Translations under genes and position numbers: made by a program | Part shown: positions 3,057 through 24,000 of the stretch, piece by piece | Numbering within the stretch: position 1 is the stretch's first letter | Layout: every line of letters begins with the position of its first letter | The notes under the pieces: model-generated | The model's database searches: none | The model's input: the letters and a program-made list of their open reading frames with translations, nothing else | What the model was told of the DNA's origin: nothing | Assembly: GCA_035262365.1 (NCBI GenBank) | Contig: DATFSZ010000118.1 | Location: forward strand, 16,374-40,373 | Direction: 5' to 3' | Source: Candidatus Binataceae bacterium | GTDB taxonomy: Bacteria; Desulfobacterota; Binatia; Binatales; Binataceae | DNA length: 24,000 nucleotides

Positions 3057-3453
3057 TCAGAAATTAACCGCCGTCGGTGCGCCGGTCCGGATGCGCTCGA
3101 TCGCGGAGAGCCGCCGCTCGAAGGCGGCTTGCATTACGCGCAACTCCCGCCGATGGTTGGCTTCCAGTTCAGCCATCCCGCGCTCAGTGGCGATTTTCTC
3201 CGCGCCACCTGGTCGGACAATTTCCGCAACTCGCCGGCCTCCTTCTGCAGCTTGTTGAGCAGCATCGCGCTGAGCATCGAGTAACGCACCGTCTGGACCT
3301 TGCCGTCGGACCCTAAACCACCAGCTCCGGTAGATCTTCGCGACCTCTTCCGCCACCAGCCCGTACTGGAGTGTGCCGGCGGGATCGTTGTTGTACCGAA
3401 AGGAGACTGGCCGCAGCTTCAGCAGCCCCTGGCTGGCGCCGCCCATGTCGCGG
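3057..3453 (-). pseudogene. Orphan, frameshifted 3' fragment of a tail-fibre/S74 chaperone-domain gene (paralogous to the 3' end of 3518-5236)
   Basis: DNA 3243-3453 aligns with 3702-3914 at roughly 85-90 percent identity by eye. The peptide MGGASQGLLKLRPVSFRYNNDPAGTLQYGLVAEEVAKIY matches MGGASQGLLKLRPVTFRYNNDPTGTRQYGLVAEEVAKVY of the intact gene. A 2-nt deletion near 3318-3330 breaks the frame. GSDGKVQTVRYSMLSAMLLNKLQKE continues in another frame and a second shift restores the coiled-coil tail. Homology stops at about 3453, after the Ser/Lys catalytic site, so the fragment has no N-terminal part. Confidence 0.8.
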
Positions 3454-3517
3454 GGTGGATCAGGCGACCCACCCCGCCAGCCACAAAAATGCGCAGAGTA
3501 TCTGGAACGCGCTGCTT

Positions 3518-9754: not shown

Positions 9755-10909
9755 TTAGGCGGCCATCAACTCCCGAGTCATGGCGCGCGCCCAGCTATCG
9801 GTCTCCAACACGTCTTCGAGGCTGCGCGCGCCGCGTCCATGATGACGCCCCATCACGGTTTCGATATGACGGGCAATCTCCAGGAAGCGAATCTTCTTTG
9901 CCAGAAATCCGGCTACCAGCTCCTCGTTGGCGGCGTTTAGGCAGGCGGGCATCGTACCACCCGCGGCGAGCGCCTCGTACGCCAGGCGCAGACAAGGGAA
10001 GCGGCCCAGGTCGGGCTGCTCGAAAGTCAGTGTGCCGCAATCCACCAGCGACAGAGGCTGCAGATGGTCCATCGGCAGCCGTTCGGGAAACGCCAGCGCA
10101 TAGGCGACGGGAATCGCCATATCGGGTATCGCCATCTCGGCCAGCACCGAGCCGTCGATCATCTCGACCATGGAGTGGACGATGCTCTGCGGATGGATAA
10201 TGACAGAGATCCGGGAGGAGTCCAGGCCGAACAGCCAGCGCGCCTCGATCACTTCCAGTCCCTTGTTCATCAGGGTGGCGGAATCGATGGTGATCTTCGC
10301 GCCCATCTGCCAGGTCGGATGCTTGAGCGCGTCAGCCACGGTTACCGTCTCAAAGCGATCGATCGGCAGGGTGCGAAACGGACCACCGGACGCGGTCAGG
10401 ATGATTCGTTTGACGGTGGAGCGCCGGCGCCCCTCGATACATTGGAACAGCGCGTTATGTTCGCTGTCCACCGGCAGCAGGCGCACCTTGTGGCGCTCGG
10501 CCGCACGCGTTACCACTTCGCCCGCAACCACCAGCACTTCTTTGTTGGCGAATGCGATATCCTTGCCCGCCTCAATAGCGCGCAGCGTCGGGCGCAGCCC
10601 CAGCGCACCCACCATCGCCGAGACCACCAACTGGGCGGCGGGCCAGGTGGCAACGGAAATGGCGCCATCGAGTCCAGTCACTATTTCCACGCGCTCCGCG
10701 CCAAGCAGCTCTTTAAGCCGCAAGGCTGCCTCGCCGTCGGCCACCGATACCAGCTCGGGGCGGAAGCGGCGAATCTGCTCGGCCAGCAGTTCCACGTTGC
10801 GCCCGGCGGCGATGGCGCCGACACGGAATTGCTCGCTGAAGCGGCTGACGACATCGAGCGTGGTTACACCAACTGAGCCGGTGGATCCCAGAACCGCAAT
10901 CGTCTTCAT
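9755..10909 (-). CDS. dxr: 1-deoxy-D-xylulose 5-phosphate reductoisomerase, 384 aa
   Basis: MKTIAVLGSTGSVG NADPH loop, LLPVDSEHNALFQC, LTASGGPFR and HPTWQMGAKITIDSATLMNKGLEVIEA are all canonical Dxr blocks. ATG lies 6 nt after the shc stop. Confidence 0.93.
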   Translation of the reverse strand: MKTIAVLGSTGSVGVTTLDVVSRFSEQFRVGAIAAGRNVELLAEQIRRFRPELVSVADGEAALRLKELLGAERVEIVTGLDGAISVATWPAAQLVVSAMVGALGLRPTLRAIEAGKDIAFANKEVLVVAGEVVTRAAERHKVRLLPVDSEHNALFQCIEGRRRSTVKRIILTASGGPFRTLPIDRFETVTVADALKHPTWQMGAKITIDSATLMNKGLEVIEARWLFGLDSSRISVIIHPQSIVHSMVEMIDGSVLAEMAIPDMAIPVAYALAFPERLPMDHLQPLSLVDCGTLTFEQPDLGRFPCLRLAYEALAAGGTMPACLNAANEELVAGFLAKKIRFLEIARHIETVMGRHHGRGARSLEDVLETDSWARAMTRELMAA

Positions 10910-10915
10910 GGCCAG

Positions 10916-12880
10916 TTACCCCGCCGCTTTCTCCTTAAGCCGCGCTTTAAATCTACCCAGCGCCATCAAGGGGAAATAGTGGGGGTACATGTAGTAGCGC
11001 AAATAGAAATGATTAGGGAAGCCCGTGCCCGTGGATTCGGTCTCGTCCCACGTGCCCTGATCGTTCTGGCGCTCCAGCAGCCAATCCACTCCGCGCGTTA
11101 CGCTATCGCTAATCGCGTCTTCGCCGGCCAGCAGGCCAATCAGCGCCCATGCGGTCTGGCTCGCGGTGCTCGTGCCGCGCCCGCGCCATTCGCGATCCTT
11201 GTCGCTCAGCGGACTCTCGCCCCATCCGCCGTCCGAGTTCTGGTGGTCCTTGAGCCACTGCACGGCGCGCCGGATCCACGGCTGCTCCGGATCGACTCCG
11301 ATTGCGCGCAAGCCGCCCAGCGCCGAGAAGGTGCCATAGATGAAATTGACACCCCATCTGCCCCACCACGAGCCGTCCGCCTCCTGCGCCGCCTTGAGCC
11401 AGTCGATCGCGCGGCGCGCCACCGGATGCTCCGCTCGATAGCCGACCGCCGCCATCATCTCGAGCACCCGCCCGGTCAAATCGGGGCAGCTCGGATCAGT
11501 CACCGCCTCGACGTCGGCGAACGGCAGATGATTGAGCCAGGTGGAGTTGTTGTCGGCGTCGAAGGCGGCAAAACCGCCGTCGCGGGACTGCATCCCCATC
11601 ACCCAGTTGGACCCCGCGCTGATCGACCGCTCGCGCGCCGCCGCGTCGGCAAACCGCGTCGCCGCGAGCACGCACAGGATAACCGCCGAGTCGTCCACGT
11701 CGGGATAACAGTCGTTGTAGAACTCAAACGCCCATCCACCGGGTTCGAGCTTGGGCCGCTTAATCGACCAGTCGCCGCGTTTGAAGATTTGATGGTCGAT
11801 AAGCCAGCGCGTGACTTTGACCATCGACTCATCGTCGGGACTGATTCCCGACTCCAGCAGCGCCTTGGCCGCCAGGCCGGTGTCCCAGTTGGGCGATACG
11901 CAGGGCATGTACAGAATCTTGTCGCCCATGTCCCATATCAGTTCGCGGCTGGCGTCGATCGCCTTTTTGAGCACCGGATGATCGGTGCGGTAGCCGAGGC
12001 CCTTGAGCGCCATCGCGCTGAGCAGGTAGCAAGGCTCGATTCCGCCCCACGAGCCGTTGGCCTCCTGATGCTCCAGGATCCAGTTCTCCGCCGCGCGCAG
12101 CGCGCGCACACGCAGCCCCTGGATCGGATGGCGGTTGTAGCCGCGCAGCATCGCGTCGGTAAGGTTTAATATTCCGCGCAATGAGAAACGGCTTTTTGCG
12201 GCCGGCGGGCGAAAGCGCGTAAAGTGCGGCGGCTCGATATAAAGTTCCAGGACGCCAGCTTCGTAACTGACCTTGACCACCGGCTTCGCCGCTTGCAGCA
12301 GCATCAGGCCGAACAGCGTGCCGCGCGCCCAGGATGACAGCTCATAGACGTTGACCGGCGACCAATTGGGCAGCAGGCAGATTTCCACTGGCAGCGACGT
12401 GGTCGCCTCCCACGGAACCTGGCCCATCGCGGCCAGGTAAAAGCGCGCCAACGAGCCGCACTTCGCCACCCCGCCGCGGGAAAGAATCCAGCGCCGCGCC
12501 TGCGACATCTCCTCGTCGCCCGCGCGCATCCCGGCCAGCTTCAGCGCGAAGTACGCCTCGATACTGGTAGAAAGGTAGCCCTCGCCGCCCGGAAACAGAC
12601 TCCAACTACCGTCGGGCTGCTGGAGTTCCAGGATGTGCTTCTTGAGCTTGGCCTCCTCCTGGGGGTCCACACAGTCCATGAAGTGCGTGAAGATAACATA
12701 CTCGGCGTTCATCTCCGCGTTGGCTTCCAGCGGAGCATGCCAGTAGCCCTCAGGCTTCTGCAGCTTGAGCAGCGACTGTTGGGCACGGCTGATGACCTGA
12801 TCAAGGCGCAGGCCAAGTTGCCCGTTGGTGACTGCCGCAACCCCCGCCGCCGCGCCGTCAATTTGAATCGTTTCGCTCAT
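10916..12880 (-). CDS. shc: Squalene-hopene cyclase, 654 aa
   Basis: Catalytic Asp-rich motif DVDDSAV (DxDD). Multiple QW repeats (QQPDGSW, QEANGSWGG, QSRDGGF, QEADGSWWGRWG, QNSDGGWGE, QNDQGTW). Length typical of SHC. Confidence 0.93.
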   Translation of the reverse strand: MSETIQIDGAAAGVAAVTNGQLGLRLDQVISRAQQSLLKLQKPEGYWHAPLEANAEMNAEYVIFTHFMDCVDPQEEAKLKKHILELQQPDGSWSLFPGGEGYLSTSIEAYFALKLAGMRAGDEEMSQARRWILSRGGVAKCGSLARFYLAAMGQVPWEATTSLPVEICLLPNWSPVNVYELSSWARGTLFGLMLLQAAKPVVKVSYEAGVLELYIEPPHFTRFRPPAAKSRFSLRGILNLTDAMLRGYNRHPIQGLRVRALRAAENWILEHQEANGSWGGIEPCYLLSAMALKGLGYRTDHPVLKKAIDASRELIWDMGDKILYMPCVSPNWDTGLAAKALLESGISPDDESMVKVTRWLIDHQIFKRGDWSIKRPKLEPGGWAFEFYNDCYPDVDDSAVILCVLAATRFADAAARERSISAGSNWVMGMQSRDGGFAAFDADNNSTWLNHLPFADVEAVTDPSCPDLTGRVLEMMAAVGYRAEHPVARRAIDWLKAAQEADGSWWGRWGVNFIYGTFSALGGLRAIGVDPEQPWIRRAVQWLKDHQNSDGGWGESPLSDKDREWRGRGTSTASQTAWALIGLLAGEDAISDSVTRGVDWLLERQNDQGTWDETESTGTGFPNHFYLRYYMYPHYFPLMALGRFKARLKEKAAG

Positions 12881-13097
12881 GACAAATTTACTCTTGGCTC
12901 GACGCGCGTTGGCCGCAGTGGAAATGCGCCGATCAACCTCACCTTGGGCCTCTCGCTCTTCGGGGAGAGGGGATATAAAGAACAGTGCTTTGTATTCTTC
13001 ACTTACAGGCCAGGCATCCTAATGTGGGGAACCTCCAAGACCTCATTTTATTCCTTCCCCCAAGATGAGGTTTCTCTCTTCAACAAGGCGTCCTGTC

Positions 13098-13121
13098 TCC
13101 TCTCCCCGACAACGGAGAGGA
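13098..13121 (-). terminator. Hairpin 15 nt downstream of the Zn-ADH stop (possible end of the tetR-hpnH-ispA-ADH unit)
   Basis: 8-bp perfect stem tcctctcc (13098-13105) / ggagagga (13114-13121), 8-nt loop. No clear U-tract follows on the minus strand, so terminator function is uncertain. Confidence 0.3.
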
Positions 13122-13136
13122 CGAGGCTGAGAACGG

Positions 13137-14189
13137 TCAAGGAATGATCGCGCACTTCAAAACGTCCCCGCGCTCCAGCAGGTCGAACACTTGCGGCAAC
13201 TCGCTGAGCCGCTTGCGCTCATTGATAATTCTGCCCACGCCCAGCTTGCGCTCGGCCAGCAAGTCGCGCGCGCCCCTGACGTCTTCGGGCCGGAAATGGA
13301 ACGGCGCGATAAGCGTCAGACTATCGTAATGCATCCTGCGCGTATCCAACTGCACCGAGGTACCGGCCGCGCACCCGCCGAAAAACACGACGCGTCCACC
13401 GCGCCGCACGCAGCGCAAGGCACTCTCCCATCCCGAGACCTGTCCCGTCGCCTCGATCACGAGGTCGGGACCATAGCCCCCGTTTAGCGCGGCCGCTTTG
13501 GCCGCAACGTCCTCGCTGCGCGCGTCGATTACCTGATCGGCGCCCATCTCGGCGGCCCATCGCAGCCGGGAATCGCCCCGTCCCGCGACCACCACGCTGC
13601 CTGCGCCCGCGGCCTTCAGCAGGATCACGTGCAGCAGACCGAAAGCTCCCGCGCCCAACACCATGCAGGTTTCAAATCGCTGCGGACACGCGATCGCCTG
13701 CGCGTGGACCACGCAAGCCAGCGGTTCGAGCAGCGCGGCCTCCTCGAAAGGAAGGCCGGCCGGTTTCTTGAACACGTTGCGCGCCACCACATGAGCCGGC
13801 AGCAGCAGGAAATCGGCATACGCGCCCATCACCATCGTGTCGATCACGCTGATACACAGGCTTTCCTGGCCACGGCCGCAGAAAAAGCAATTACCGCATG
13901 GCGCCGTCGGCGCCGCCATCAGTTCATCGCCGGGCCTGAAACCTTCGACACCCGTGCCCACCTCGGCCACCACGCCGGAGAACTCATGGCCAAAGGGCAT
14001 CGGAAAGCTGAACAGAGGATGGCCGCGGCGATAGAACTTCAAATCGGTGCCACAACTGAGCGCGCATTTGATTTGCAGCAAGATCTCACCGGGCCCCGGG
14101 TGCGGCGCCACGGTCGGGCGCAATTCAAAATGCCGCGGCCCAACCAGGACTGCCTGGCGTGGCGCGGCGGGAGTATCGCCTGCGCTCAT
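13137..14189 (-). CDS. Zinc-dependent medium-chain alcohol/polyol dehydrogenase (sorbitol/threonine dehydrogenase-like), 350 aa
   Basis: GHEFSGVVAEVG catalytic-zinc signature, CGNCFFCGRGQESLC structural-zinc cysteines and VLGAGAFGLL NAD(P) loop. Its ATG overlaps the ispA stop (ATGA at 14186-14189). Confidence 0.85.
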   Translation of the reverse strand: MSAGDTPAAPRQAVLVGPRHFELRPTVAPHPGPGEILLQIKCALSCGTDLKFYRRGHPLFSFPMPFGHEFSGVVAEVGTGVEGFRPGDELMAAPTAPCGNCFFCGRGQESLCISVIDTMVMGAYADFLLLPAHVVARNVFKKPAGLPFEEAALLEPLACVVHAQAIACPQRFETCMVLGAGAFGLLHVILLKAAGAGSVVVAGRGDSRLRWAAEMGADQVIDARSEDVAAKAAALNGGYGPDLVIEATGQVSGWESALRCVRRGGRVVFFGGCAAGTSVQLDTRRMHYDSLTLIAPFHFRPEDVRGARDLLAERKLGVGRIINERKRLSELPQVFDLLERGDVLKCAIIP

Positions 14190-15151
14190 AGCGAGCGCTC
14201 CACCACGAAGATGGCGAGTTCGCGCAGCGCCCGCGCGCGATCGTCGAAGGCGGACAGCGCCGAAATCGCGCGCTCCTTGAGATCGTGCGCAAACCGGCGC
14301 GACTTCTCCACACCCATCAGCGCCGGGTAGGTGGCCTTGCCGTGCGCATCGTCCTTGTGCGTGCGCTTACCGAGCTGCTCGGTGGATGCGGTTACGTCCA
14401 GCAGATCGTCGATCACCTGAAAAGCCAGACCCAGCGCGCGCCCGTATTCGGACAGGGCATCGATCTGCCGGCTGTCGCCGCCGCCCAACATCCCGCCACC
14501 GCGCACGGCGGCAAGAAACAGCGCCCCGGTCTTGCGCGCGTGAAGGTACTCAAGCGTCGCCTGGTCTGTCGCCTTGCCCTCGGAGAGAATATCGAGCGCC
14601 TGCCCGATAACCATTCCCGGAGAACCGGCCGCCTGCGCAAGTTCTGCCACCACGTCCAGCACCACCGCCGCGGGCACGCGCCCGTGCGGCGAGCGCGCCA
14701 GGACTCTGAAGGCGTCGGTCAAAAGAGCGTCACCCGCCAGCGTCGCCATGGCTTCGCCGTACACCTTGTGATTGGTGGGCCGGCCGCGGCGCAGGTCGTC
14801 GTCGTCCATGCAGGGCAGATCGTCATGGATCAGAGAGTAGGTATGGATCATCTCCAGGGCGCAGGCTAGCCCCAGTGCGTCGTCAGGATGGCCCCCGACC
14901 GCCTCGCACGCCGCGATAGCCAGGACCGGCCGCAGGCGTTTGCCGCCTGCTAACAGACTGTAGCGCATCGCTTCAATCAGTTGTGATCCGGGCTCTTCGT
15001 GTGCGGCCACGGTGCGATCGAGCGCGCCCTCCATGAGTTGAGCGCGTTCCTTGAGGTAGCGTTCGATGTTGAAATCCGCCGCGCTGCCGTGGCGCGGCGT
15101 TTTGGTCTCCTGATTGGCCTTCGGGGCCGGGCGTGAGCCGGAATTAGGCAT
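14186..15151 (-). CDS. ispA: Farnesyl diphosphate synthase (type II short-chain trans-prenyl diphosphate synthase)
   Basis: IHTYSLIHDDLPCMDDDDLRRGRPTNH (FARM with a 2-residue insertion and Tyr at position -5, as in E. coli IspA) and FQVIDDLLD (SARM). ATG 15151 preferred; TTG 15166 possible. The N-terminus is about 25 residues longer than E. coli IspA. Confidence 0.82.
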   Translation of the reverse strand: MPNSGSRPAPKANQETKTPRHGSAADFNIERYLKERAQLMEGALDRTVAAHEEPGSQLIEAMRYSLLAGGKRLRPVLAIAACEAVGGHPDDALGLACALEMIHTYSLIHDDLPCMDDDDLRRGRPTNHKVYGEAMATLAGDALLTDAFRVLARSPHGRVPAAVVLDVVAELAQAAGSPGMVIGQALDILSEGKATDQATLEYLHARKTGALFLAAVRGGGMLGGGDSRQIDALSEYGRALGLAFQVIDDLLDVTASTEQLGKRTHKDDAHGKATYPALMGVEKSRRFAHDLKERAISALSAFDDRARALRELAIFVVERSL

Positions 15152-15184
15152 CGATTGTCTCAGCAAACGGCAGCGGACTTTCTC

Positions 15185-15209
15185 CGCGCCGCGGAGCAGC
15201 GGCGGCGCG
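15185..15209 (-). other. All-GC intercistronic hairpin between hpnH and ispA
   Basis: cgcgccgc (15185-15192) pairs with gcggcgcg (15202-15209), 9-nt loop. No U-tract follows, so it is more likely an mRNA structure than a terminator. Confidence 0.3.
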
Positions 15210-15220
15210 CCGCGTCAAAA

Positions 15221-16219
15221 TCAAGACACGTAGTAGCGCACCATTTTCCACGAATCCTTGAGGTTCTTGCCGAAATCCAGCGCCACGGTGCCCTCGAAGC
15301 CCGAATGCATCTTGCAGTCGCGGCAGCGAATGTCCTGCTTGGTCCGGTAGAACTCCCAATCGATAGCCTGATGCAGCTCGTCGAAGGTGCGATAATGGCC
15401 GTTGGTGATCAGGTAACAGGGTCCCTTCCATCCCTGCGGATTGCGCGTCACCGTGGTCCACGGGCTGCACTGCAGATCGCGCTCCCCGGTGAGATACTCC
15501 AGGTAAATCGGGGTGTTGATGATCTTGTGGTCCGCGGCGAGTCTCTTGACGCGTTTGAATTTCTCGGGCGTTTCGTCGGATTTGAGATAAATGTCGTTGG
15601 TCAGCACCTGGTAGTGATAGCCGGGGCTGACCAGCATACCGTCCACCCCGAACGAAGTCAGCAACTCGACCAGCTCCTCGATCTCCTCGGCGCTGGTTTC
15701 ACGGAAGACCGTGGTATTTGTCTGCACCCAGTAGCCTTTTTCCTTGAGCATCTTGATCATGCGCACGCAGGTATCGAAAACGCCGTCGCGGTCAACCACG
15801 CGGTCGTGCGTCTCGCGCATCCCGTCGATATGCACGTTGAAGCTCAGGTACGGGCTGGGCGGCACCTGCTTGACGAACCGCTCCAGCAGCAGGGCGTTGG
15901 TGCAGATCATCGTGTGGCGGCGCCGCTCGATAAGGCCCTTGGTCAAGGGCACGATATGCTTGTAGATGAGCGGCTCCCCGCCGCAGATCGAAACGATAGG
16001 AGCGCCCGCTTCCTCGGCGGCCCCCAGCGCTTCCTCCAGCGGCATCTGGTCGCGAATCGTGTCCTTGTACTCGACAATGCGCCCGCAGCCGACGCAAGCT
16101 AGATTGCATGCGTGCAGCGGTTCGAGCATCAGCACGATGGGAAAATACGTGTTCCCGGCGCGTTTTTGCCGCGTCATGTAACGCGCCAGGTCGGTCATCA
16201 GTTTGAGCCGCATACGCAT
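15221..16219 (-). CDS. hpnH: Adenosylhopane synthase, hopanoid-associated radical SAM protein HpnH, 332 aa
   Basis: YFPIVLMLEPLHACNLACVGCGRI (CX3CX2C radical-SAM cluster in the context typical of HpnH). Conserved length. Start lies 18 nt after the tetR stop. Confidence 0.88.
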   Translation of the reverse strand: MRMRLKLMTDLARYMTRQKRAGNTYFPIVLMLEPLHACNLACVGCGRIVEYKDTIRDQMPLEEALGAAEEAGAPIVSICGGEPLIYKHIVPLTKGLIERRRHTMICTNALLLERFVKQVPPSPYLSFNVHIDGMRETHDRVVDRDGVFDTCVRMIKMLKEKGYWVQTNTTVFRETSAEEIEELVELLTSFGVDGMLVSPGYHYQVLTNDIYLKSDETPEKFKRVKRLAADHKIINTPIYLEYLTGERDLQCSPWTTVTRNPQGWKGPCYLITNGHYRTFDELHQAIDWEFYRTKQDIRCRDCKMHSGFEGTVALDFGKNLKDSWKMVRYYVS

Positions 16220-17133: not shown

Positions 17134-18192
17134 TCAGCGGCTGGATCCCGTTTCTGGGTCCTGCTCGATGTTTTCTCTCCCTCCGCTAAGTGAAATCGGC
17201 GTTCCTGCGGAGGCCTGCGAGGTCTTGGCCGCTAGCAGGATCGCCAAGGCCGTCTGCGCTTCACGTTGGTTTTGCCTCGTTATCCGACCTTGGGGCCCTT
17301 GCGCGATGGCCGCCTCGAACTCTTCCGCGAGCGCGGCGAACCAGGCCGGATGATAGGAGTTGTCCGGCTCTTCGATTACCGGCAAATCCTCACTCCCCCT
17401 GGAGCGCCGGGTGAGACGGATCGTGCTGTCCTCGATTTCCAGCATTCCCTCATCGCCATAGAGTATCGCCGAGGTGCGGCGTGCAGGAGCGCGCCAGGAA
17501 AGATGGATGTGACCGAGCCTGCCGCCGGAGAAGGTCGCAGTTAAATCGGCGACCTCATCGACGACGCCGGGCGGAAACACCTCCAGGCGCGCCCCGATGG
17601 TAAGCGGCGCCTGTCCACCCATCAGCCATTGCATCAGGTAGAACACGTGCCAGCCGTGATCGATCAGGATTCCTCCGCCGCCGATCACCGGGTCGACTCG
17701 CCACGGCGCTCCGCCCGCCTGCTGCGTCCGAAGCCGCGTCAGCGCGCAGTAGCTGACTCCGCCCAGCACGCCGGCGCTAATCGCTTCGGATGCGCGCCGA
17801 TAGACGGGGGAATGCTTCCAGTTGTGTACGCAGAACAGCGTCCGCCGATGTGACGATCCGAGCGAGTAAAGATCGTCCAGCGTTTTGAGATCGAGACACA
17901 GCGGCTTCTCAACCAGCACGTGGGCGCCGGCTTCGAGCGCGGCGCGCGCTGCGCCGGCATGATAGGCAGGCGGGCTGGCGATATCGACGAAGTCGGGGGA
18001 TTCGCCCGCCAACAGCAGCCCCAGATCCTCATAAACACGGACGTTTTTGATCGCGCGCAGTGCAGCCTGCCGCCGCTCTGCTATGGGCTCGTGGATCGCG
18101 ACGATTTCAACTTCAGGCCGCCGGCGCCATCCCGGCAGATGACCCTGCTCGGCAACCTGTCCGAAACCGGAAATTGCGCCGCGCAGTTTCAT
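17134..18192 (-). CDS. Gfo/Idh/MocA family NAD(P)-dependent oxidoreductase
   Basis: MKLRGAISGFGQVA Rossmann start and the VLVEKPL motif. ATG 18192 preferred because the family normally starts just before beta-1; the ORF track start TTG 18219 would add 9 residues. Confidence 0.82.
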   Translation of the reverse strand: MKLRGAISGFGQVAEQGHLPGWRRRPEVEIVAIHEPIAERRQAALRAIKNVRVYEDLGLLLAGESPDFVDIASPPAYHAGAARAALEAGAHVLVEKPLCLDLKTLDDLYSLGSSHRRTLFCVHNWKHSPVYRRASEAISAGVLGGVSYCALTRLRTQQAGGAPWRVDPVIGGGGILIDHGWHVFYLMQWLMGGQAPLTIGARLEVFPPGVVDEVADLTATFSGGRLGHIHLSWRAPARRTSAILYGDEGMLEIEDSTIRLTRRSRGSEDLPVIEEPDNSYHPAWFAALAEEFEAAIAQGPQGRITRQNQREAQTALAILLAAKTSQASAGTPISLSGGRENIEQDPETGSSR

Positions 18193-18278
18193 AGGAGTTC
18201 TCTGTTCTCGCTCGAACAATCATTCGTGGGAGAGGCTAAGGGTGAGGCCGACTGATGCACTTCAAGCAAAGTGATCGC

Positions 18279-18408: not shown

Positions 18409-19296
18409 TTAAACCAGGTATTTCCGCGCCAGGTCTTCCAACTCTTTTTGCCACGTGGCGGGTTCGAGTGCGAAGCCCTTGCGGTACAGCGCTTCGGTAC
18501 CCACCACGATACGCTGGCATCCGGCGGCCTCGTATTCCTCGTAGGTCCGCTTGATGTCCTCCTGCTCGAAGGGCCGGAACATCGTGACATCCATCTTGGC
18601 GAAATCGCGACCCGCTTCGGTGCACATCTTTTTGAGAGTCGCAAGGCTGGCCGCGAGTTGCGCCGGCTTAAGCCGCAGCGGCATCCAACCGTCGCCAATC
18701 TCGACCACGTCGCGCAGCACGCGGTCGGGTCCCTTGGCTCCTCCGTTGGCACCAATCAGTACGGGCGGATGAGGCTTCTGGACCGGCTTGGGAAAGCTTC
18801 TGACAGCGGGGAACTTTATATACTTACCCTCGAAGCTCGCCTCGGGCTTGGTCCACAACTCCTTCATCGCGCGGATGCACTCGCGCGTGACAGGCCATCG
18901 CTTGGCGAACTCCACACCCATGATCTCCGTTTCATCCGCCAACCATCCCGCACCGATCCCAAACCACATGCGGCCGCCGGAGAAGTAGTCCACCGTGGCA
19001 ACTTCCTTGGCCAGCACCATCGGGTTGTGCTCGGGAACCAGGCAGATGCCCGTCATCAGCTTGATGCGGCTGGTGACGGCCGCGGCGATTCCCAGCAGCA
19101 CGAACGGGTCGGGCATGTGCGAGTACCAATCCGGAATCTCACCGCCACCGGCCGGATAAGGTGTTCTATGTTTGACGGGAATGATGGCGTGTTCAGGAAC
19201 TATCAAAGCATCGAAGCCCAGTTCCTCCACCCTGCGAAACATCAGGTCAGGCTTCGCGGTCCGTTCATTGGCGAATACCGATACGCCGACTTTCAT
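18409..19296 (-). CDS. LLM-class oxidoreductase, probably F420-dependent (Rv2161c-like subgroup), 295 aa
   Basis: MKVGVSVF...EELGFDALIVPEH...LVPEHNPMVLAKEVATVDYFSGGRMWFGIGAGW resembles the short F420-type LLM proteins. GGAGG lies 8 nt upstream of ATG 19296. The cofactor cannot be decided by eye. Confidence 0.78.
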   Translation of the reverse strand: MKVGVSVFANERTAKPDLMFRRVEELGFDALIVPEHAIIPVKHRTPYPAGGGEIPDWYSHMPDPFVLLGIAAAVTSRIKLMTGICLVPEHNPMVLAKEVATVDYFSGGRMWFGIGAGWLADETEIMGVEFAKRWPVTRECIRAMKELWTKPEASFEGKYIKFPAVRSFPKPVQKPHPPVLIGANGGAKGPDRVLRDVVEIGDGWMPLRLKPAQLAASLATLKKMCTEAGRDFAKMDVTMFRPFEQEDIKRTYEEYEAAGCQRIVVGTEALYRKGFALEPATWQKELEDLARKYLV

Positions 19297-19469
19297 TTCA
19301 TAAACCTCCGCGCTCTCCTCGGTGCTGACTCGATGTCATAGCGTAAACTCGGCTAATCAGACTACCGCCCGGCCATTGCGGTAGTGCAGTCAAACTCTGA
19401 AATGATTTTCGCTTCCGGGGGTACTTTAGCCGCGATTTCGAAACCGTCGCGTCTGCAGCACAGCAATCA

Positions 19470-19958
19470 TCAGCTCCACTTGAAAAATTCGTTGGCGTAA
19501 ACGAACCGGCCCACGCCCGCCGCCCTGGCGCATTGCTCGTCGACTTCCTGGTCGCCGACCATCGTGGAGCCCGCCAGATCGACGCCGTAGGTCTGCGCCA
19601 GTTCAGTGACCATCCCGGCCGCCGGCTTGCGGCATTCGCAGCCATCCTCAGGACCATGCGGGCAGATCTCCCACGCGGTCAGGATTCCGCCCAATTGCAG
19701 ATCCAGCTGCGCGATCGCGGCTTCGACCTGCTCGCGGGTGAAGCGGCCGCGTTTGATTCCGCGTTGATTGGTCACGATGAAGATTAAATGATCGCGAACC
19801 GGGCGCAGGGTTTCCGCAACGTTGGGCAGTATCTTGACCGTGACCTTGCCGCTGCGGTCGGCGGGCAGGTCGCGATTCTCATCTAGTTCGACCAGGGTTC
19901 CGCCCAAGTCGAAGAACAATCCAAGGTTTCCGGCATTCTCCGCCATCGCCGCGCTCAA
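19470..19958 (-). CDS. HAD-IIIA hydrolase, GmhB-like (D,D-heptose 1,7-bisphosphate phosphatase family) with atypical motif I
   Basis: VTNQRGI (motif II), the zinc loop CPHGPEDGCECRKP characteristic of GmhB, and MVGDQEVDEQ (motif IV). Motif I reads FFDLGGTL instead of DxDGT. TTG 19958 overlaps the aminotransferase stop (TTGA); ATG 19946 is an alternative start. Confidence 0.8.
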   Translation of the reverse strand: MSAAMAENAGNLGLFFDLGGTLVELDENRDLPADRSGKVTVKILPNVAETLRPVRDHLIFIVTNQRGIKRGRFTREQVEAAIAQLDLQLGGILTAWEICPHGPEDGCECRKPAAGMVTELAQTYGVDLAGSTMVGDQEVDEQCARAAGVGRFVYANEFFKWS

Positions 19959-21316
19959 GCCTCCCGCCAGTTCAGATGGTCGCGCACGTAAGTGAAGACT
20001 TCTTCCAGAATCGCCACGCCGGCCGCGGCCTGTTCCTCCGTGATCACCAGGGGCGGGTTAATGCGAACGCGAGGGAAGTAGCCCATGATCAGCAATCCGC
20101 GCTTAAGCGCCTCCTTGAAAATGACCTCGGTCACCCGGTGGCTCAGTTCTTCCTTGGTGCGGCGATCACGCACCAAATCGATTCCGATCAACAGACCGCG
20201 TCCGCGCACGTCTCCTACGAACTCGAATTTTTCCTTGAACATCTCCAGGCTTGCCAACAGCTTGGCTCCGACGGCGCACGAGTTGTCCGTCAAGTGCTCC
20301 TCCTGGATCGCGCGCAACGTCTCCCCGACAGCTACCGCCGCCAGCGGATTGCCGCCGTAGCTGGACGAGGAAGCGCTGGGCTTGGCGAAGGGCTTGGCCT
20401 GCGCAACCTTCTCGGTCATCAGTACGCCCGACACCGGGAAGCCCGAACCCATCCCCTTGCCGACGGTCATGATGTCCGGACGGACGCCGGTATGCTCCAC
20501 GCCCCACATCTTTCCGGTGCGCCCAAAGCCGGTGATCATCTCGTCGGCAATCAGCACGGCGTCATTTTCCCGCGCGATCTCTTTGACCGCCGGCAGGAAC
20601 TCATCGGGCGGAATCACGTTGCCAGCGGTACCTTGAAAAGGTTCGACCAATACAGCGGCGATAGCGCCCGCCGAACTGTTTTTGATCTGCTTGCGCGCGA
20701 ACTCGACGCAGAACATGCCGCATCCAGGATATTCAAGCTTGAATGGACATCGGTAACAGTCCGCGTAGGGCACGAGATGCTGTCCGCCGGGAAGCGGGCC
20801 ATAGCCCTGCTTGGACTCGTCGCCTATAAGCCCGATAACACCGCCGGTCTTGCCGTGGAAACCGCCCCAGAAACCGACGACCTCGTGCTTACCGGTAAAT
20901 GAGCGTGCCGCGCGCAACGCAGCCTCGACCGCTTCGGCGCCTCCGCTATAGAGATGGAAGCGCCTAAGCGGCGCCGGTGCGGCTTCAGCCAAAGCCTTGA
21001 AGGATTCGGCGCGCTCCGGAGTCGCAAACGTACCGACCATCAGGCGCGCTGCCTGTTCGGAGAGCGCTTTGGACATCGCGGGATGCCCATGGCCCAGGCT
21101 GGCGACCGCAACCCCGGCAAAGAAATCCACGTAAACGTTGCCGTCCACATCGGTCAACGTGGCGCCTTCGCCATGGTCAAAGGCAACGCCGGCCAGCGAG
21201 GAAATCCGCTGGCGGCCAGGGGCAAGGTAGTGTTCTTCTTGTTCGAACAGGGCGCGGGAGCGGGGTCCCGGTACCGAGGTTGTTACAGAAGGAAGTTTGG
21301 TCTTCTTTGCTTTCAT
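19955..21316 (-). CDS. Class III (omega) pyridoxal-phosphate aminotransferase, GabT/HpnO-like, 453 aa
   Basis: PGPRSRALFEQEE...DVDGNVYVDFFAGVAVASLGHGHP, LIADEMITGFGRTGKMW and the PLP lysine in MTVGKGMGSGFP (PF00202 expected). Confidence 0.88.
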   Translation of the reverse strand: MKAKKTKLPSVTTSVPGPRSRALFEQEEHYLAPGRQRISSLAGVAFDHGEGATLTDVDGNVYVDFFAGVAVASLGHGHPAMSKALSEQAARLMVGTFATPERAESFKALAEAAPAPLRRFHLYSGGAEAVEAALRAARSFTGKHEVVGFWGGFHGKTGGVIGLIGDESKQGYGPLPGGQHLVPYADCYRCPFKLEYPGCGMFCVEFARKQIKNSSAGAIAAVLVEPFQGTAGNVIPPDEFLPAVKEIARENDAVLIADEMITGFGRTGKMWGVEHTGVRPDIMTVGKGMGSGFPVSGVLMTEKVAQAKPFAKPSASSSSYGGNPLAAVAVGETLRAIQEEHLTDNSCAVGAKLLASLEMFKEKFEFVGDVRGRGLLIGIDLVRDRRTKEELSHRVTEVIFKEALKRGLLIMGYFPRVRINPPLVITEEQAAAGVAILEEVFTYVRDHLNWREA

Positions 21317-21332
21317 CGGATGAATGAGAAGG

Positions 21333-21412
21333 GAGAAGCGAGAATTGAAAAACGGGAGAAAGAGCTTCGCGAGACCGGATTCTCAACAAGGGTGCTGGTT
21401 TTCTCGCTTCTC
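21333..21412. repeat. 12-bp perfect inverted repeat GAGAAGCGAGAA / TTCTCGCTTCTC flanking the ATP-grasp/aminotransferase spacer
   Basis: 21333-21344 pairs with 21401-21412 (56-nt loop containing a smaller gagaa/ttctc stem, 21356-21360 with 21380-21384). The right arm overlaps the ATP-grasp stop codon. The left arm ends 16 nt before the aminotransferase ATG. Confidence 0.6.
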
Positions 21413-22241
21413 AATTCTCTACCCTTGTATCTCTCACTAGCTGCAGCGCCCGGTGCGCTATCGCCGCCGCCGCTTGGTCTCTGACTCGCTCAAAACTGGG
21501 CCAGTCGTTGAAATCCACGATTTTCAATTGTTCGCCGTGGACGATTGCGTCGCCACCCCATACCTCCAATCCCAGCGCCCTCGCCGCTTCGTCTGCCGCA
21601 GCCTGGAGCCGCGCGGTTAACACCCCGCTCGATGCTCCTTGCGCGTCGGCCGTGCTGAAGTAACTGCCACCGGTCACGCCATAAAACTTCACTACCCTAC
21701 CCTCCACCGCGGCTTGAAGGTAGGCGAGCCGGATTCCACGGGTGGCAAAATCCCGCAGCGCGGCATCGAGCGCTGCCTGGTCGTCCACGCGGCGCACGTC
21801 GCCGGCGAACAGCGCGTGCAAGTCGCCGCGCTTCACATAGATACCGCGCCGCGCGTCCAGCGTAGCTTTCGCGCCGCCCCCATCCGGCGCGGCGGTCTCG
21901 ACCAGCATCCCTTCGGGAACCGGTGCAGACGCCGCTTTCAGCAGTTCACCGAGACGATCGCGATAGCAGGATCTGATCGCTCGCGGCGAATTGATTACCA
22001 AGGCACCGCCGGCCTCAGCGGCCCGCAGCCGCTCCAGCGCCTGATGGCTTTGGCACATCGCCAGAATCAGGTCGCACCGCGGGAGCGGGTTGTTGATAAA
22101 GTCGCGCGCCGCAAGCGCCGATATTTCCAAGCCTTGAGCGGCGAGATTGGCGAGGACCGAATCCAAAATCGCCGCGTCAGCGGCGACCTTGCCGGGCGAG
22201 AATTCCGTCTCGCGATATATACCCAGCGCGCGGCCCATCAT
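21411..22241 (-). CDS. ATP-grasp fold protein (RimK / inositol-phosphate kinase-like), ligase or kinase, 276 aa
   Basis: Pre-ATP-grasp region with GGALVINSPRAIRSCYRDRLGELL, a central GIYVKRGD strand, VEGRVVKFYGV, and C-terminal GLEVWGGDAIVHGEQLKIVDFNDWPSF resembling the Mg-ATP binding DxN.(F/W)P motif. ATG overlaps the upstream stop (ATGA at 22238-22241). Confidence 0.6.
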   Translation of the reverse strand: MMGRALGIYRETEFSPGKVAADAAILDSVLANLAAQGLEISALAARDFINNPLPRCDLILAMCQSHQALERLRAAEAGGALVINSPRAIRSCYRDRLGELLKAASAPVPEGMLVETAAPDGGGAKATLDARRGIYVKRGDLHALFAGDVRRVDDQAALDAALRDFATRGIRLAYLQAAVEGRVVKFYGVTGGSYFSTADAQGASSGVLTARLQAAADEAARALGLEVWGGDAIVHGEQLKIVDFNDWPSFERVRDQAAAAIAHRALQLVRDTRVEN

Positions 22242-22999
22242 CCGCTCCCGCTGCGCCGCGGTATGTTCAACGCCGGCTTTTCGACCATCGCGCGCGCCGC
22301 TTCGAGATCCTGTGCAACGTCGATATCGATTACTTCCTTCAAGGCGACCGCATGCAGGCCGACGCCCCAGTCCGCCACGGCGGCCAGGAATTGGCGCAGC
22401 GCGGACAGCCCGGCTTGGCGCGCACGATCGCGGAAGGCAATAATCGACTGCGGCAGGAAATAAACGCCGGCGGTAACCGTATCGCCGCCGGCGGCGCCTA
22501 CCTTGCGTATCAGTCCCGCGCCGTCAACGTCGACAAAGAGCGGACGCTCGTCTCCGCGCCATCGCACCACACCCAGCACGCCGCTGTCGGGCGCCGCGGG
22601 ATTGGCGCAAGCCAGCGCAGTTGCGCGCCGAGCGAAGCGCGTCATTTCGCCGCGACCGAGCACTGAATCGACCGTCGCAGCCAAAAACCATCGGCTGGTC
22701 AGATGCTCGCATAGCTGGAACAGCGTCTCCATCGAATTGGGCGTGTCACGCACGACTACCGTCAACCGCTCGGGGAGCGAAATTGCGTCGCGCTCAATCA
22801 CTGCCGCGGTCTCGGAATTGACCACGGCGACCACGCGCCTAGCCCCAGCCTCCAGCAGGATACGGGTCTGGCGGGCGAGCAGCGTTTCTCCATCCAGCAC
22901 GACCAGAGGCTTGGGCAGATTTGCGCCTTGAGCGCGCAGCCGCTCGCCACGTCCGGCCGCCAGAATTCCCCCGTCAATCGACTCCAAGACAGATCTCAA
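22238..22999 (-). CDS. Sugar/alcohol-phosphate nucleotidyltransferase (NTP_transferase / MobA-like superfamily), 253 aa
   Basis: GGILAAGRGERLR...PKPLVVLDG signature loop near the N-terminus and C-terminal VIDIDVAQDLEAA as in LicC/IspD-like cytidylyl- or guanylyltransferases. Start is TTG 22999 or TTG 22987; both overlap the HAD stop (22974-22976). Confidence 0.8.
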   Translation of the reverse strand: MRSVLESIDGGILAAGRGERLRAQGANLPKPLVVLDGETLLARQTRILLEAGARRVVAVVNSETAAVIERDAISLPERLTVVVRDTPNSMETLFQLCEHLTSRWFLAATVDSVLGRGEMTRFARRATALACANPAAPDSGVLGVVRWRGDERPLFVDVDGAGLIRKVGAAGGDTVTAGVYFLPQSIIAFRDRARQAGLSALRQFLAAVADWGVGLHAVALKEVIDIDVAQDLEAARAMVEKPALNIPRRSGSG

Positions 23000-23789
23000 C
23001 CAGTTGATGAAGGTTGTGCACAGCTAAATCAGCGCTCGCTTCATCTTGAGGAGTGTACTCCACCCCTTCGGGCATCAACCATACGGTGCGCAGCCCGAGC
23101 CGCCTTGCCGGCACACAATCCTTCGCCAGCGAATCCCCGACCATCGCGGTCTCTTCGGGTCGCGCGTTCAGCCGGCCCAGCGCTGCTTGGTAAATCTTCG
23201 GGTCTGGTTTGAATGCGCCAACGCGCGATGAGTCGATGGCTGCGACGACGAACGTGGCTAAGCCCGCCTCTTTCAAAACCGGCTCCAGGTTGCCGTAAAA
23301 GTTGGACACCACGCCGATCGTGAAACGAGAAGCCAGCGCGCCGAGAATACGGCGGCTTTGCTCATAGCCGGCCGCGCTTTCGGCGCAAAAGCTGGCCGCG
23401 ATGGCTGGGGCGGAGTCGCGAATCGAAGGTGGGACACGCTTCGGCAAATGTTCGATCAGGTAATCGATTTGCCAGTTCACAAGTTCGTCAAGCAGCGGGC
23501 GCAGGCCATAGCCATAGATGCGTGCGCCGGCCCGATAGCCGCGACCAGTCGCATAAGCGAAGGCAGGGTCCAGTTCCTCGCGGTTCAGCTTAATGCCCGC
23601 TGCGCCGTAGTGGCGCAGGAAGCGGTCCAGCCAATGCGCCCCCGGACGGTCGAGCGTCCCGCCGAAATCGAACAGCAGCGTGGTGATTTGTTGCCAACCG
23701 GTTTCCAAAGACTTACGGCATTTTGATGCCGCCTTTCTGAAAATGAGCTTAAAATTTACGGATAAGGGGCGGCCGAAGCCAGCGTTCAC
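22974..23789 (-). CDS. HAD-IA family hydrolase with cap domain (atypical motif I)
   Basis: LLFDFGGTLD (motif I), IGVVSNF (II), AFKPDPKIY (III), MVGDSLAKD (IV). The ORF track start is GTG 23789, but the first 27 codons are A/T-ending and basic, unlike the rest of the gene. TTG 23708 (start LETGWQQITTLLFD) is a plausible true start. Confidence 0.8.
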   Translation of the reverse strand: MNAGFGRPLSVNFKLIFRKAASKCRKSLETGWQQITTLLFDFGGTLDRPGAHWLDRFLRHYGAAGIKLNREELDPAFAYATGRGYRAGARIYGYGLRPLLDELVNWQIDYLIEHLPKRVPPSIRDSAPAIAASFCAESAAGYEQSRRILGALASRFTIGVVSNFYGNLEPVLKEAGLATFVVAAIDSSRVGAFKPDPKIYQAALGRLNARPEETAMVGDSLAKDCVPARRLGLRTVWLMPEGVEYTPQDEASADLAVHNLHQLVEICLGVD

Positions 23790-24000
23790 TTTAAAACTCT
23801 TTTATGTTTAGGCTTGGCGGGCCCGGCGCAGCGCGAACGTCAACCAATGTGGAGAGCGGATCGAAGCCTGAAAATGATTGGATTCATAAGGGAAAATCTC
23901 GGGTGTATTGCTTTGCCTGACCGATTGGTTTAGTACATTCACTTTGAACTGACCGGAAAGTTAATAGCTTGGACCTTACTTCGACCAGTCAAGAAAATCC

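Follow-up and report, generated by a model that had tools for sequence, protein, structure and literature searches.

IPCT/DIPPS, of the di-myo-inositol-phosphate pathway of hyperthermophiles, is a functionally characterized member of a subfamily of CDP-alcohol phosphotransferases, and its CDP-activated partner is a polar alcohol. The early steps toward streptomycin and hygromycin A employ MIPS, an inositol monophosphatase, an inositol dehydrogenase, an aminotransferase, and an inosamine kinase. In the NtdC/NtdA/NtdB logic of kanosamine formation, a dehydrogenase, an aminotransferase, and a HAD phosphatase act on a sugar phosphate. Here, we analyzed a five-gene block on the minus strand (positions 19470 to 23789) of a 24,000-nt stretch of DNA, hereafter the window, from an uncultured Candidatus Binataceae bacterium (GenBank assembly GCA_035262365.1, contig DATFSZ010000118.1, positions 16,374 to 40,373). 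The block encodes, in order, a HAD-IA family hydrolase, a nucleotidyltransferase (NTP), an ATP-grasp protein of an unnamed family, a class III aminotransferase, and a HAD-IIIA phosphatase-like protein. We favor, with modest confidence, a reading in which this block, a nearby Gfo/Idh/MocA dehydrogenase, and two divergently transcribed genes build a phospho-amino-inositol (inosamine) head group that is attached to a membrane lipid. An earlier interpretation made from the letters of the window alone (the sequence-only reading) had linked the block to hopanoid head groups and offered a nucleotide-activated amino-polyol as a fallback; comparative evidence favors the fallback, which is sharpened here to a CDP-(amino)inositol head-group pathway.

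Judging from its gene content, the cluster is probably an aminated sibling of the "putative alternative inositol lipid cluster" of Bacteroidales, for which a CDP-inositol, Kennedy-type route has been put forward (Heaver et al. 2022; PMC9246714). B. vulgatus and P. veroralis, both of which produce inositol lipids, lack the genes of the B. thetaiotaomicron type, and the alternative cluster is their only candidate (PMC9246714). Its genes, located near MIPS, are BVU_RS13095 (NTP transferase), BVU_RS13105 (CDP-alcohol phosphatidyltransferase), and BVU_RS13115 (HAD hydrolase). The NTP transferase was proposed to form CDP-inositol, followed by a Kennedy-type transfer, and the authors state that the functions are unconfirmed (PMC9246714). 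A literature search found no later characterization of this cluster, and searches on Binatota hopanoids, inosamine lipids, and the alternative inositol cluster returned nothing relevant beyond PMC9246714. No characterized cluster matches the five-gene block, in agreement with the sequence-only reading, which had not recognized it as a described pathway.

Related clusters and the divergent partner genes

A scan of species-representative genomes for the ATP-grasp family yielded a sample of 80 loci, which were compared with all window proteins by tblastn; 49 of these were of the Binataceae type, and the comparison outside Binataceae covered 30 loci. Among the latter are 26 Bacteroidales loci, including that of Phocaeicola vulgatus ATCC 8482 (L079), and this set represents the alternative inositol lipid cluster described above. 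The ATP-grasp, CDP-OH transferase, and HAD genes were each present in all 26, NTP in 24, and MIPS in 17. Neither the aminotransferase nor the Gfo/Idh/MocA dehydrogenase was detected in these 26 loci, and no hpn genes were found near the block homologues. The ATP-grasp gene, which goes unmentioned in PMC9246714, sits between the NTP transferase and CDP-alcohol phosphatidyltransferase genes in P. vulgatus (L079:9983-10834) and in the 25 other Bacteroidales loci (L051-L080). The unnamed ATP-grasp family, frequently found in fusion with the other enzymes, emerges as an invariable part of this cluster in gut Bacteroidales (P. vulgatus, Prevotella) that had not been mentioned before. It adds one concrete step to an unverified pathway, in organisms that can be cultured.

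The window and the B. vulgatus cluster share homologous HAD-IA, NTP, and ATP-grasp genes (27 to 35% identity), the HAD motif D[FY]GGT, a CDP-alcohol phosphotransferase within the cluster, and the proposed Kennedy-type CDP-alcohol logic; the NTP gene of the window is homologous to the "BV NTP" gene of PMC9246714. The Binataceae system adds the class III aminotransferase, the Gfo/Idh/MocA dehydrogenase, a GmhB-like HAD-IIIA protein, and a B12-binding radical-SAM (rSAM) protein, whereas it has no MIPS or LPG_synthase_TM gene nearby and its transferase bears an AF2299-like N-terminal cytosolic domain.

Versions with the aminotransferase were also found outside Binataceae. In all four complete non-Binataceae loci with the aminotransferase, a Gfo/Idh/MocA gene lies in the same cluster, and in three of them it is directly adjacent. 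The gene order is MIPS-HAD-IA-NTP-ATP-grasp-aminotransferase-Gfo/Idh/MocA in L049, HAD-NTP-ATP-grasp-aminotransferase-Gfo/Idh/MocA-CDP-OH transferase in L060, and sulfotransferase-CDP-OH transferase-LPG_synthase_TM-B12-rSAM-HAD-NTP-ATP-grasp-aminotransferase-Gfo/Idh/MocA-MMPL in L053 (Desulfarculales). In L052 (Bdellovibrionales), the order Gfo/Idh/MocA-MIPS-ATP-grasp-CDP-OH transferase-LPG_synthase_TM is accompanied by HAD and NTP on the opposite strand, followed by the aminotransferase. The LPG_synthase_TM protein of these relatives is an MprF-type transmembrane (flippase-like) protein. A search with the MIPS of L049 returned very similar MIPS proteins from many phyla, without resolving the organism.

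The nearest matches to the window, at the level of both proteins and loci, came from Candidatus Binataceae metagenome-assembled genomes. Within Binataceae, 40 of the 41 sufficiently long loci had all five genes, identically ordered. The sequence-only reading had called an operon and assigned its families by motif; this order and the family searches (Pfam and NCBIfam, with AlphaFold and Foldseek for the ATP-grasp protein) bear out both. On the opposite strand, 140 to 2,700 nt away, a CDP-alcohol phosphotransferase gene and a B12-rSAM gene accompany the block in 39/40 Binataceae loci with upstream sequence. For the window itself, the pair was recovered from two further contigs: L082 is 100% identical to window positions 18844-24000, extends 1256 nt beyond, and carries a 368-aa CDP-OH_P_transf protein, and L081 (99.9% identical) adds the 441-aa rSAM protein. 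The transferase gene lies on the plus strand, starting at approximately position 24077, about 77 nt past the window end, and the rSAM gene follows it; the respective gene calls carry PF01066 and PF04055/PF02310. The unit extends beyond the five genes to the Gfo/Idh/MocA gene and to the divergent pair past the window end, and the five genes are probably the soluble-enzyme half of a two-operon system.

Natural fusion proteins connect the same functions. NTP is fused to ATP-grasp in P0132, P0151, and P0223, HAD-IA to NTP and ATP-grasp in P0204, and ATP-grasp to HAD-IA in P0258; P0230 joins ATP-grasp, a cytosolic domain, and a CDP-OH transferase. These fusions independently link the four activities in a single pathway.

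Protein families and candidate activities

The divergent transferase carries the full DxxDGxxAR...GxxxDxxxD motif (as DGVDGELAR...G...D...D). Its top NCBIfam matches are IPCT/DIPPS (NF041135; 77.6 bits versus a cut-off of 580), archaetidylinositol-phosphate synthase, and PIP synthase, and in the PDB it matches Archaeoglobus fulgidus AF2299 (7.6e-18) and IPCT/DIPPS (4MND; 6.7e-11) over a region that spans the juxtamembrane helix after the cytosolic N-terminal domain. With IPCT/DIPPS and AF2299, the system shares a nucleotidyltransferase, a CDP-alcohol phosphotransferase of the same subfamily with the juxtamembrane helix and signature motif, and an expected phosphatase step; it differs from IPCT/DIPPS in having the two activities on separate proteins, in the added aminotransferase, dehydrogenase, and ATP-grasp protein, and in a product that is probably a lipid. 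The rSAM protein scored far below the cut-offs of the BchE, PhpK, HpnJ (84 versus 578 bits), AprD4, and "ladder lipid" models.

The aminotransferase, NTP, Gfo/Idh/MocA, and ATP-grasp proteins all retain their catalytic motifs. The aminotransferase matches PF00202 (Aminotran_3; 320 bits), bears its catalytic lysine in TVGKGMG, and reaches no NCBIfam equivalog cut-off (best score, 362 versus 552). No other gene of the block is as well conserved (70 to 87% identity within Binataceae and 47 to 61% with other lineages), and a search with it returned Binataceae orthologues only, under generic names. We infer that it is an inosose (or inosose-phosphate) aminotransferase. The Gfo/Idh/MocA protein, in whose translation the EKP and DxxxH motifs are present, has as its top NCBIfam match IolG inositol 2-dehydrogenase (71.5 bits, below the cut-off). 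Its homologues, at 34 to 42% identity, adjoin the aminotransferase in L049, L053, and L060 and MIPS in L052; across the same genomes, the HAD, NTP, and ATP-grasp genes have diverged to a comparable extent. The dehydrogenase is a likely functional partner, which would oxidize inositol or inositol phosphate to inosose.

The nucleotidyltransferase matches PF12804 (44.9 bits) and carries the GxGxRL signature GILAAGRGERLR. Its NCBIfam matches are generic and far below the cut-offs, and they include the IPCT domain of IPCT/DIPPS (E = 1.2e-7). The enzyme would be a CTP:(amino)inositol-phosphate cytidylyltransferase.

Both HAD proteins depart from the usual first motif. HAD-IA (PF00702, 62.5 bits; top NCBIfam match DREG-2-like, 69.8 bits, below the cut-off) has FDFGGTLD as motif I, without the usual second aspartate (Asp+2), and GDSLAKD as motif IV; the D[FY]GGT[LI]D motif was kept in 77/77 homologues examined, including those of Bacteroidales. 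The HAD-IIIA protein likewise reads DLGGT at motif I, and DL[GA]GTL, without Asp+2, in all homologues. Its zinc loop (Cys-His-Cys-Cys; CPH...CxCRKP) is kept in homologues, its closest solved structures are GmhB enzymes, and its NCBIfam scores were 87.5 bits for GmhB (cut-off 178) and 83.4 bits for Histidinol-ppas (cut-off 84.15). It is specific to Binataceae and was absent from the four complete non-Binataceae loci with the aminotransferase. The conserved loss of Asp+2 in both proteins suggests non-standard phosphoryl-transfer chemistry.

A true GmhB was considered for the HAD-IIIA protein and rejected on the basis of its score, its motif I, and the results of family scans, in which neither of the heptose partners GmhA and HldE was present in the window. 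The kinase, phosphatase, and nucleotidyltransferase logic of NDP-heptose activation (HldE/HddA, GmhB, and HldE/HddC), which the sequence-only reading had invoked, may nevertheless apply to the block by analogy, and the GmhB-like zinc-loop HAD-IIIA is common to both. The window differs in having no GmhA or PfkB/GHMP kinase, in a HAD-IIIA that falls below the GmhB cut-off and lacks Asp+2, and in a substrate that would be a cyclitol.

The ATP-grasp protein matched no Pfam family, with faint matches to RimK and MptN at the sequence level. Its AlphaFold model (pLDDT 87.4, built on 29 homologues) has the ATP-grasp fold; with the ATP-binding lysines K137 and K185 and the Mg-binding D/E-x-N region N245/D243, the protein belongs to the ATP-grasp superfamily. 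The residues R10, R94, K137, K185, N245, and P248 are invariant, and D243 is nearly so. Foldseek placed LysX/ArgX, Ddl, and RimK at a TM score of ∼0.7, with PPIP5K2 at rank 42. A family profile built from 116 diverse members matched, in the PDB, the graspetide ligase PsnB (4.5e-8), ITPK4 (8e-8), a RimK-like protein (3e-5), and ITPK1 (8e-5), the ITPK matches being confined to the C-terminal third. The family comprises 941 representative clusters at E ≤ 1e-3. In the pathway below, this protein is assigned the role of a kinase for inositol, inosamine, or their phosphates.

A proposed amino-inositol pathway and competing readings

In the proposed pathway, MIPS, encoded within the cluster in other lineages, would supply inositol 3-phosphate. 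Inositol or inositol phosphate would be oxidized by the Gfo/Idh/MocA enzyme, and the class III enzyme would transaminate the product to inosamine or inosamine phosphate. These two steps would correspond to the dehydrogenase/aminotransferase route to scyllo-inosamine or, if the substrate stays phosphorylated, to the NtdC/NtdA/NtdB logic. The two HAD proteins and the ATP-grasp protein, acting as a kinase, would then remove the phosphate and re-place it onto the carbon to be linked. The product of MIPS is D-Ins-3-P, whereas C1 must bear the phosphate for a D-1-linked phosphoinositol to arise by a Kennedy-type route; repositioning from C3 to C1 would plausibly explain why a phosphatase and kinase pair follows MIPS. 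With CTP, the nucleotidyltransferase would form a CDP-alcohol (CDP-inosamine), from which the AF2299/DIPPS-type transferase would hand phospho-inosamine to diacylglycerol or another acceptor. The gene set is observed, whereas the chemistry is inferred from it throughout, including the sequence in which the steps occur, their regiochemistry, and the identity of the acceptor.

The amine-forming steps have a precedent, as an IolG-type dehydrogenase and an aminotransferase suffice to convert myo-inositol to scyllo-inosamine (PMC6668481). Enzyme classes of the inosamine branch of aminocyclitol metabolism (rhizopine IdhA/IolG and MosB; streptomycin and hygromycin A) recur in the L049 and L052 clusters, namely, MIPS, a phosphatase, a Gfo/Idh/MocA dehydrogenase, an aminotransferase, and possibly a kinase. 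In contrast to that branch, the window has a class III rather than a DegT/MosB aminotransferase and an ATP-grasp protein as the putative kinase, and its product would be CDP-activated and passed to a membrane transferase instead of becoming an antibiotic or opine.

Several points weigh against this pathway. Known inosose aminotransferases such as StsC, BtrS, and MosB are of the DegT type, whereas the window enzyme is class III. MIPS was found within 10 kb of the block in 0/49 Binataceae loci. In Binataceae, the Gfo/Idh/MocA gene lies two genes away from the block and goes with tetR-hpnH (17/37 loci) rather than with the block. The HAD proteins may not be ordinary phosphatases, since the Asp+2 general acid is missing from both sequences. 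The ATP-grasp protein is as near to ligases (PsnB, RimK, and LysX) as to ITPK kinases; homology does not decide between the two, and the kinase role derives from genomic context. The LLM oxidoreductase encoded downstream of the block and the B12-rSAM protein have no role in the model. The enzyme roles assigned to the set are putative throughout, the Bacteroidales cluster used for comparison is itself unverified, and literature searches for inosamine or amino-inositol lipids found no amino-inositol phospholipid.

Part of the same evidence could describe a soluble product. As in di-myo-inositol-phosphate synthesis by IPCT/DIPPS and a phosphatase, the CDP-(amino)inositol might be joined to a second polyol phosphate and then dephosphorylated by a HAD protein, yielding a soluble amino-inositol phosphodiester as a compatible solute. 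The nearest matches of the transferase, IPCT/DIPPS and AF2299, have a soluble alcohol as the CDP-activated substrate, two HAD phosphatase-like genes would suit a final dephosphorylation, and the Binataceae clusters have no LPG_synthase_TM gene nearby. We nonetheless consider a solute unlikely and favor a lipid product, for two reasons: lipid-handling genes (LPG_synthase_TM and MMPL) are found in related clusters, and in B. vulgatus and P. veroralis, which do make inositol lipids, the Bacteroidales-type cluster is the sole candidate (PMC9246714).

The ATP-grasp protein could alternatively be an amide ligase that joins the amine made by the aminotransferase to a carboxylate, such as an amino acid, following the logic of Campylobacter capsule amidation. 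True ligases (LysX/ArgX, Ddl, RimK, and PsnB) are among its top structural and profile matches, and the amine-forming enzyme is encoded next to it. However, ITPK kinases score about equally, and the 26 Bacteroidales clusters, which have no aminotransferase or obvious carboxylate or amine substrate, conserve the gene equally well. A kinase is favored because the ATP-grasp gene is kept in such clusters that make no amine, because it is fused to nucleotidyltransferase and HAD domains, as is typical of kinase/phosphatase/nucleotidyltransferase chains, and because the surrounding chemistry appears to be that of inositol phosphates. The context of the window, with a CDP-alcohol phosphotransferase and with MIPS in relatives, also differs from a capsule locus. 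Amide formation is improbable, to about the same degree as a soluble product.

The sequence-only reading had preferred a hopanoid head-group pathway; here the aminotransferase would act like HpnO, and the side chain of a bacteriohopanepolyol would be built or decorated by the remaining enzymes, for example, as an N-acyl aminotriol. The block does lie upstream of a tetR-hpnH-...-shc cluster, which begins 2.6 kb downstream with the LLM and Gfo/Idh/MocA genes intervening, and the Gfo/Idh/MocA partner directly adjoins tetR-hpnH. When adjacency was checked across genomes, HpnH was located within 10 kb downstream of the block in 16/37 Binataceae loci that extended 8 kb or more downstream and was missing in the other 21, and HpnH or SHC was near the block in 0/30 loci outside Binataceae. 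None of the block genes reached an Hpn family model, the rSAM protein fell well short of HpnJ, and the HAD, NTP, and ATP-grasp homologues of Bacteroidales occur without hpn genes nearby. The hopanoid reading is unsupported, and we regard it as very unlikely, because hpnH adjacency is patchy and the constant partners are instead the DIPPS/AF2299-type CDP-alcohol phosphotransferase/B12-rSAM pair and, in other lineages, MIPS. The adjacency is probably local Binataceae synteny with no functional requirement, and in this phylum function should not be read off the hopanoid neighborhood.

It is also very improbable that the head group derives from something other than inositol, such as an aminopentanetetrol formed by transamination of a pentose phosphate or a serinol phosphate from DHAP, destined for a phospholipid of the CDP-alcohol type. 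In favor of such a head group, the typical substrates of class III aminotransferases are aldehydes or ketones remote from a carboxylate, MIPS is missing near the Binataceae blocks, and the nucleotidyltransferase matches are generic. Against such a head group, MIPS lies in the cluster in L049, in L052, and in most Bacteroidales loci, all top matches of the transferase are inositol-phosphate transferases, and the top match of the dehydrogenase is IolG. A variant in which the AF2299-type transferase passes CDP-amino-inositol to a bacteriohopanepolyol hydroxyl instead of diacylglycerol is the most doubtful of all, although the resulting phospho-aminocyclitol hopanoid would be a lipid class never described and would explain the frequent siting of the block and dehydrogenase against tetR-hpnH.

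If the phospho-amino-inositol pathway is correct, the widespread soil and peat Binataceae would make a phospho-amino-inositol membrane lipid, as would some metagenome-assembled genomes of Desulfarculales, Syntrophobacteraceae-like, and Bdellovibrionales bacteria. A lipid of this kind would amount to a zwitterionic analogue of phosphatidylinositol and might serve as a new environmental biomarker; no report of one was found in the literature.

Locus layout and neighboring genes

All substantial genes in the window are on the minus strand according to the open reading frame list, and the five open reading frames of the block (Table 1) have the positions and overlaps described in the sequence-only reading. 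From the coordinates, the junctions are a 26-nt overlap (22974-22999), an ATGA (22238-22241), and a TTGA (19955-19958). The public gene call on contig L082 starts the HAD-IIIA gene at an ATG 8 nt past the aminotransferase stop; with the L082 starts, the block junctions, except for the spacer, still overlap or are separated by ≤8 nt.

Table 1. Positions of the block genes and adjacent features in the window
Feature	Positions	Strand	Remarks
HAD-IA family hydrolase	22974..23789	minus	271 aa, operon gene 1; public gene call identical
Nucleotidyltransferase NTP_transf_3, MobA-like	22238..22999	minus	253 aa (public gene call, 249 aa)
ATP-grasp protein, unnamed family	21411..22241	minus	276 aa (public gene call, 275 aa)
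Spacer between ATP-grasp and aminotransferase genes	21317..21410	minus	94 nt, with 10-bp inverted repeat
Class III (omega) aminotransferase	19955..21316	minus	453 aa, PF00202
HAD-IIIA phosphatase-like protein, GmhB/HisB-N type	19470..19958	minus	162 aa (public gene call, 158 aa)
F420-type luciferase-like (LLM) oxidoreductase	18409..19296	minus	295 aa, TIGR03619
Gfo/Idh/MocA NAD-dependent oxidoreductase	17134..18219	minus	361 aa, Pfam GFO_IDH_MocA domains
Divergent intergenic region, left part	23790..24000		Full region 288 nt, extends past the window

The spacer had been described as structured. Its position and length were correct, but its folding is only weakly better than that of shuffled sequences (minimum free energy, −20.6 kcal/mol; z = −2.1; 5/200 shuffles equally good). 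In relatives, 13 to 980 nt separate the ATP-grasp gene from the aminotransferase gene, with neither length nor sequence conserved. The 10-bp inverted repeat GAAGCGAGAA...TTCTCGCTTC occurs in this genome alone; L001, the closest relative, has ∼20 nt there. A regulatory element was therefore rejected on the grounds of this weak folding and lack of conservation. An Rfam scan of the window, spacer included, gave no match, and promoter and terminator scans of the window were at the level of chance (2 versus 1.8 expected and 8 versus 8.6 expected, respectively).

Downstream of the block, the genes encode, in order, the LLM oxidoreductase, Gfo/Idh/MocA, TetR, HpnH, a polyprenyl synthase, and a Zn-alcohol dehydrogenase, followed by SHC, Dxr, HpnC, HpnD, HpnE, and HpnA. 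The LLM oxidoreductase exceeds the TIGR03619 cut-off (255 bits) and follows the block in 27/37 Binataceae loci and in no other lineage; whether it is part of the system is uncertain. A reading of the block as an F420-cofactor (CofC/CofF-like) pathway, prompted by this neighbor, was dropped because the LLM gene has no link to the block outside Binataceae and because the block is tied far more strongly to the CDP-alcohol transferase and to MIPS.

Insertions between block genes vary among loci (sulfatase, FAD-binding protein, TonB-dependent receptor, ROK, and LanC-like), with no consistent extra partner. In one Binataceae locus, a sulfatase gene (L011:10395-12227) separates the aminotransferase gene from the HAD-IIIA gene, and in two others the block is followed by a gene for a TonB-dependent receptor that has a CarboxypepD_reg domain (L042:13368-15833 and L012:13509-15899). 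The Desulfarculales cluster (L053) is flanked by its sulfotransferase (3188-4531) and MMPL transporter (13424-16195) genes. The sulfotransferase and the L011 sulfatase may point to a sulfated head group in some lineages. One Binataceae locus (L008; JBKQPD010000038.1) has the HAD-IA, NTP, ATP-grasp, divergent transferase, and rSAM genes, with the aminotransferase and HAD-IIIA genes missing within 10 kb downstream, and may be a natural non-aminated variant.

The hopanoid region includes, on the minus strand (9755-15166), dxr (9755-10909) and, between hpnH and shc, a Zn-dependent alcohol dehydrogenase gene (13137-14189) and a polyprenyl synthase gene (14186-15166), an order that is kept in many Binataceae loci. 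At the edge of this cluster, a minus-strand gene (3518-5236) separates hpnA from a CruF-like gene. It encodes a 572-aa protein with a single Pfam match, to a Peptidase_S74 "chaperone of endosialidase" domain (residues 433-486), and is an odd neighbor for lipid genes. The CruF-like carotenoid 1,2-hydratase homologue (2073-2978; ∼48 bits, below the cut-off) and a second luciferase-like monooxygenase (640-1983), both on the minus strand, come after the hopanoid genes and hint at a combined isoprenoid-lipid region.

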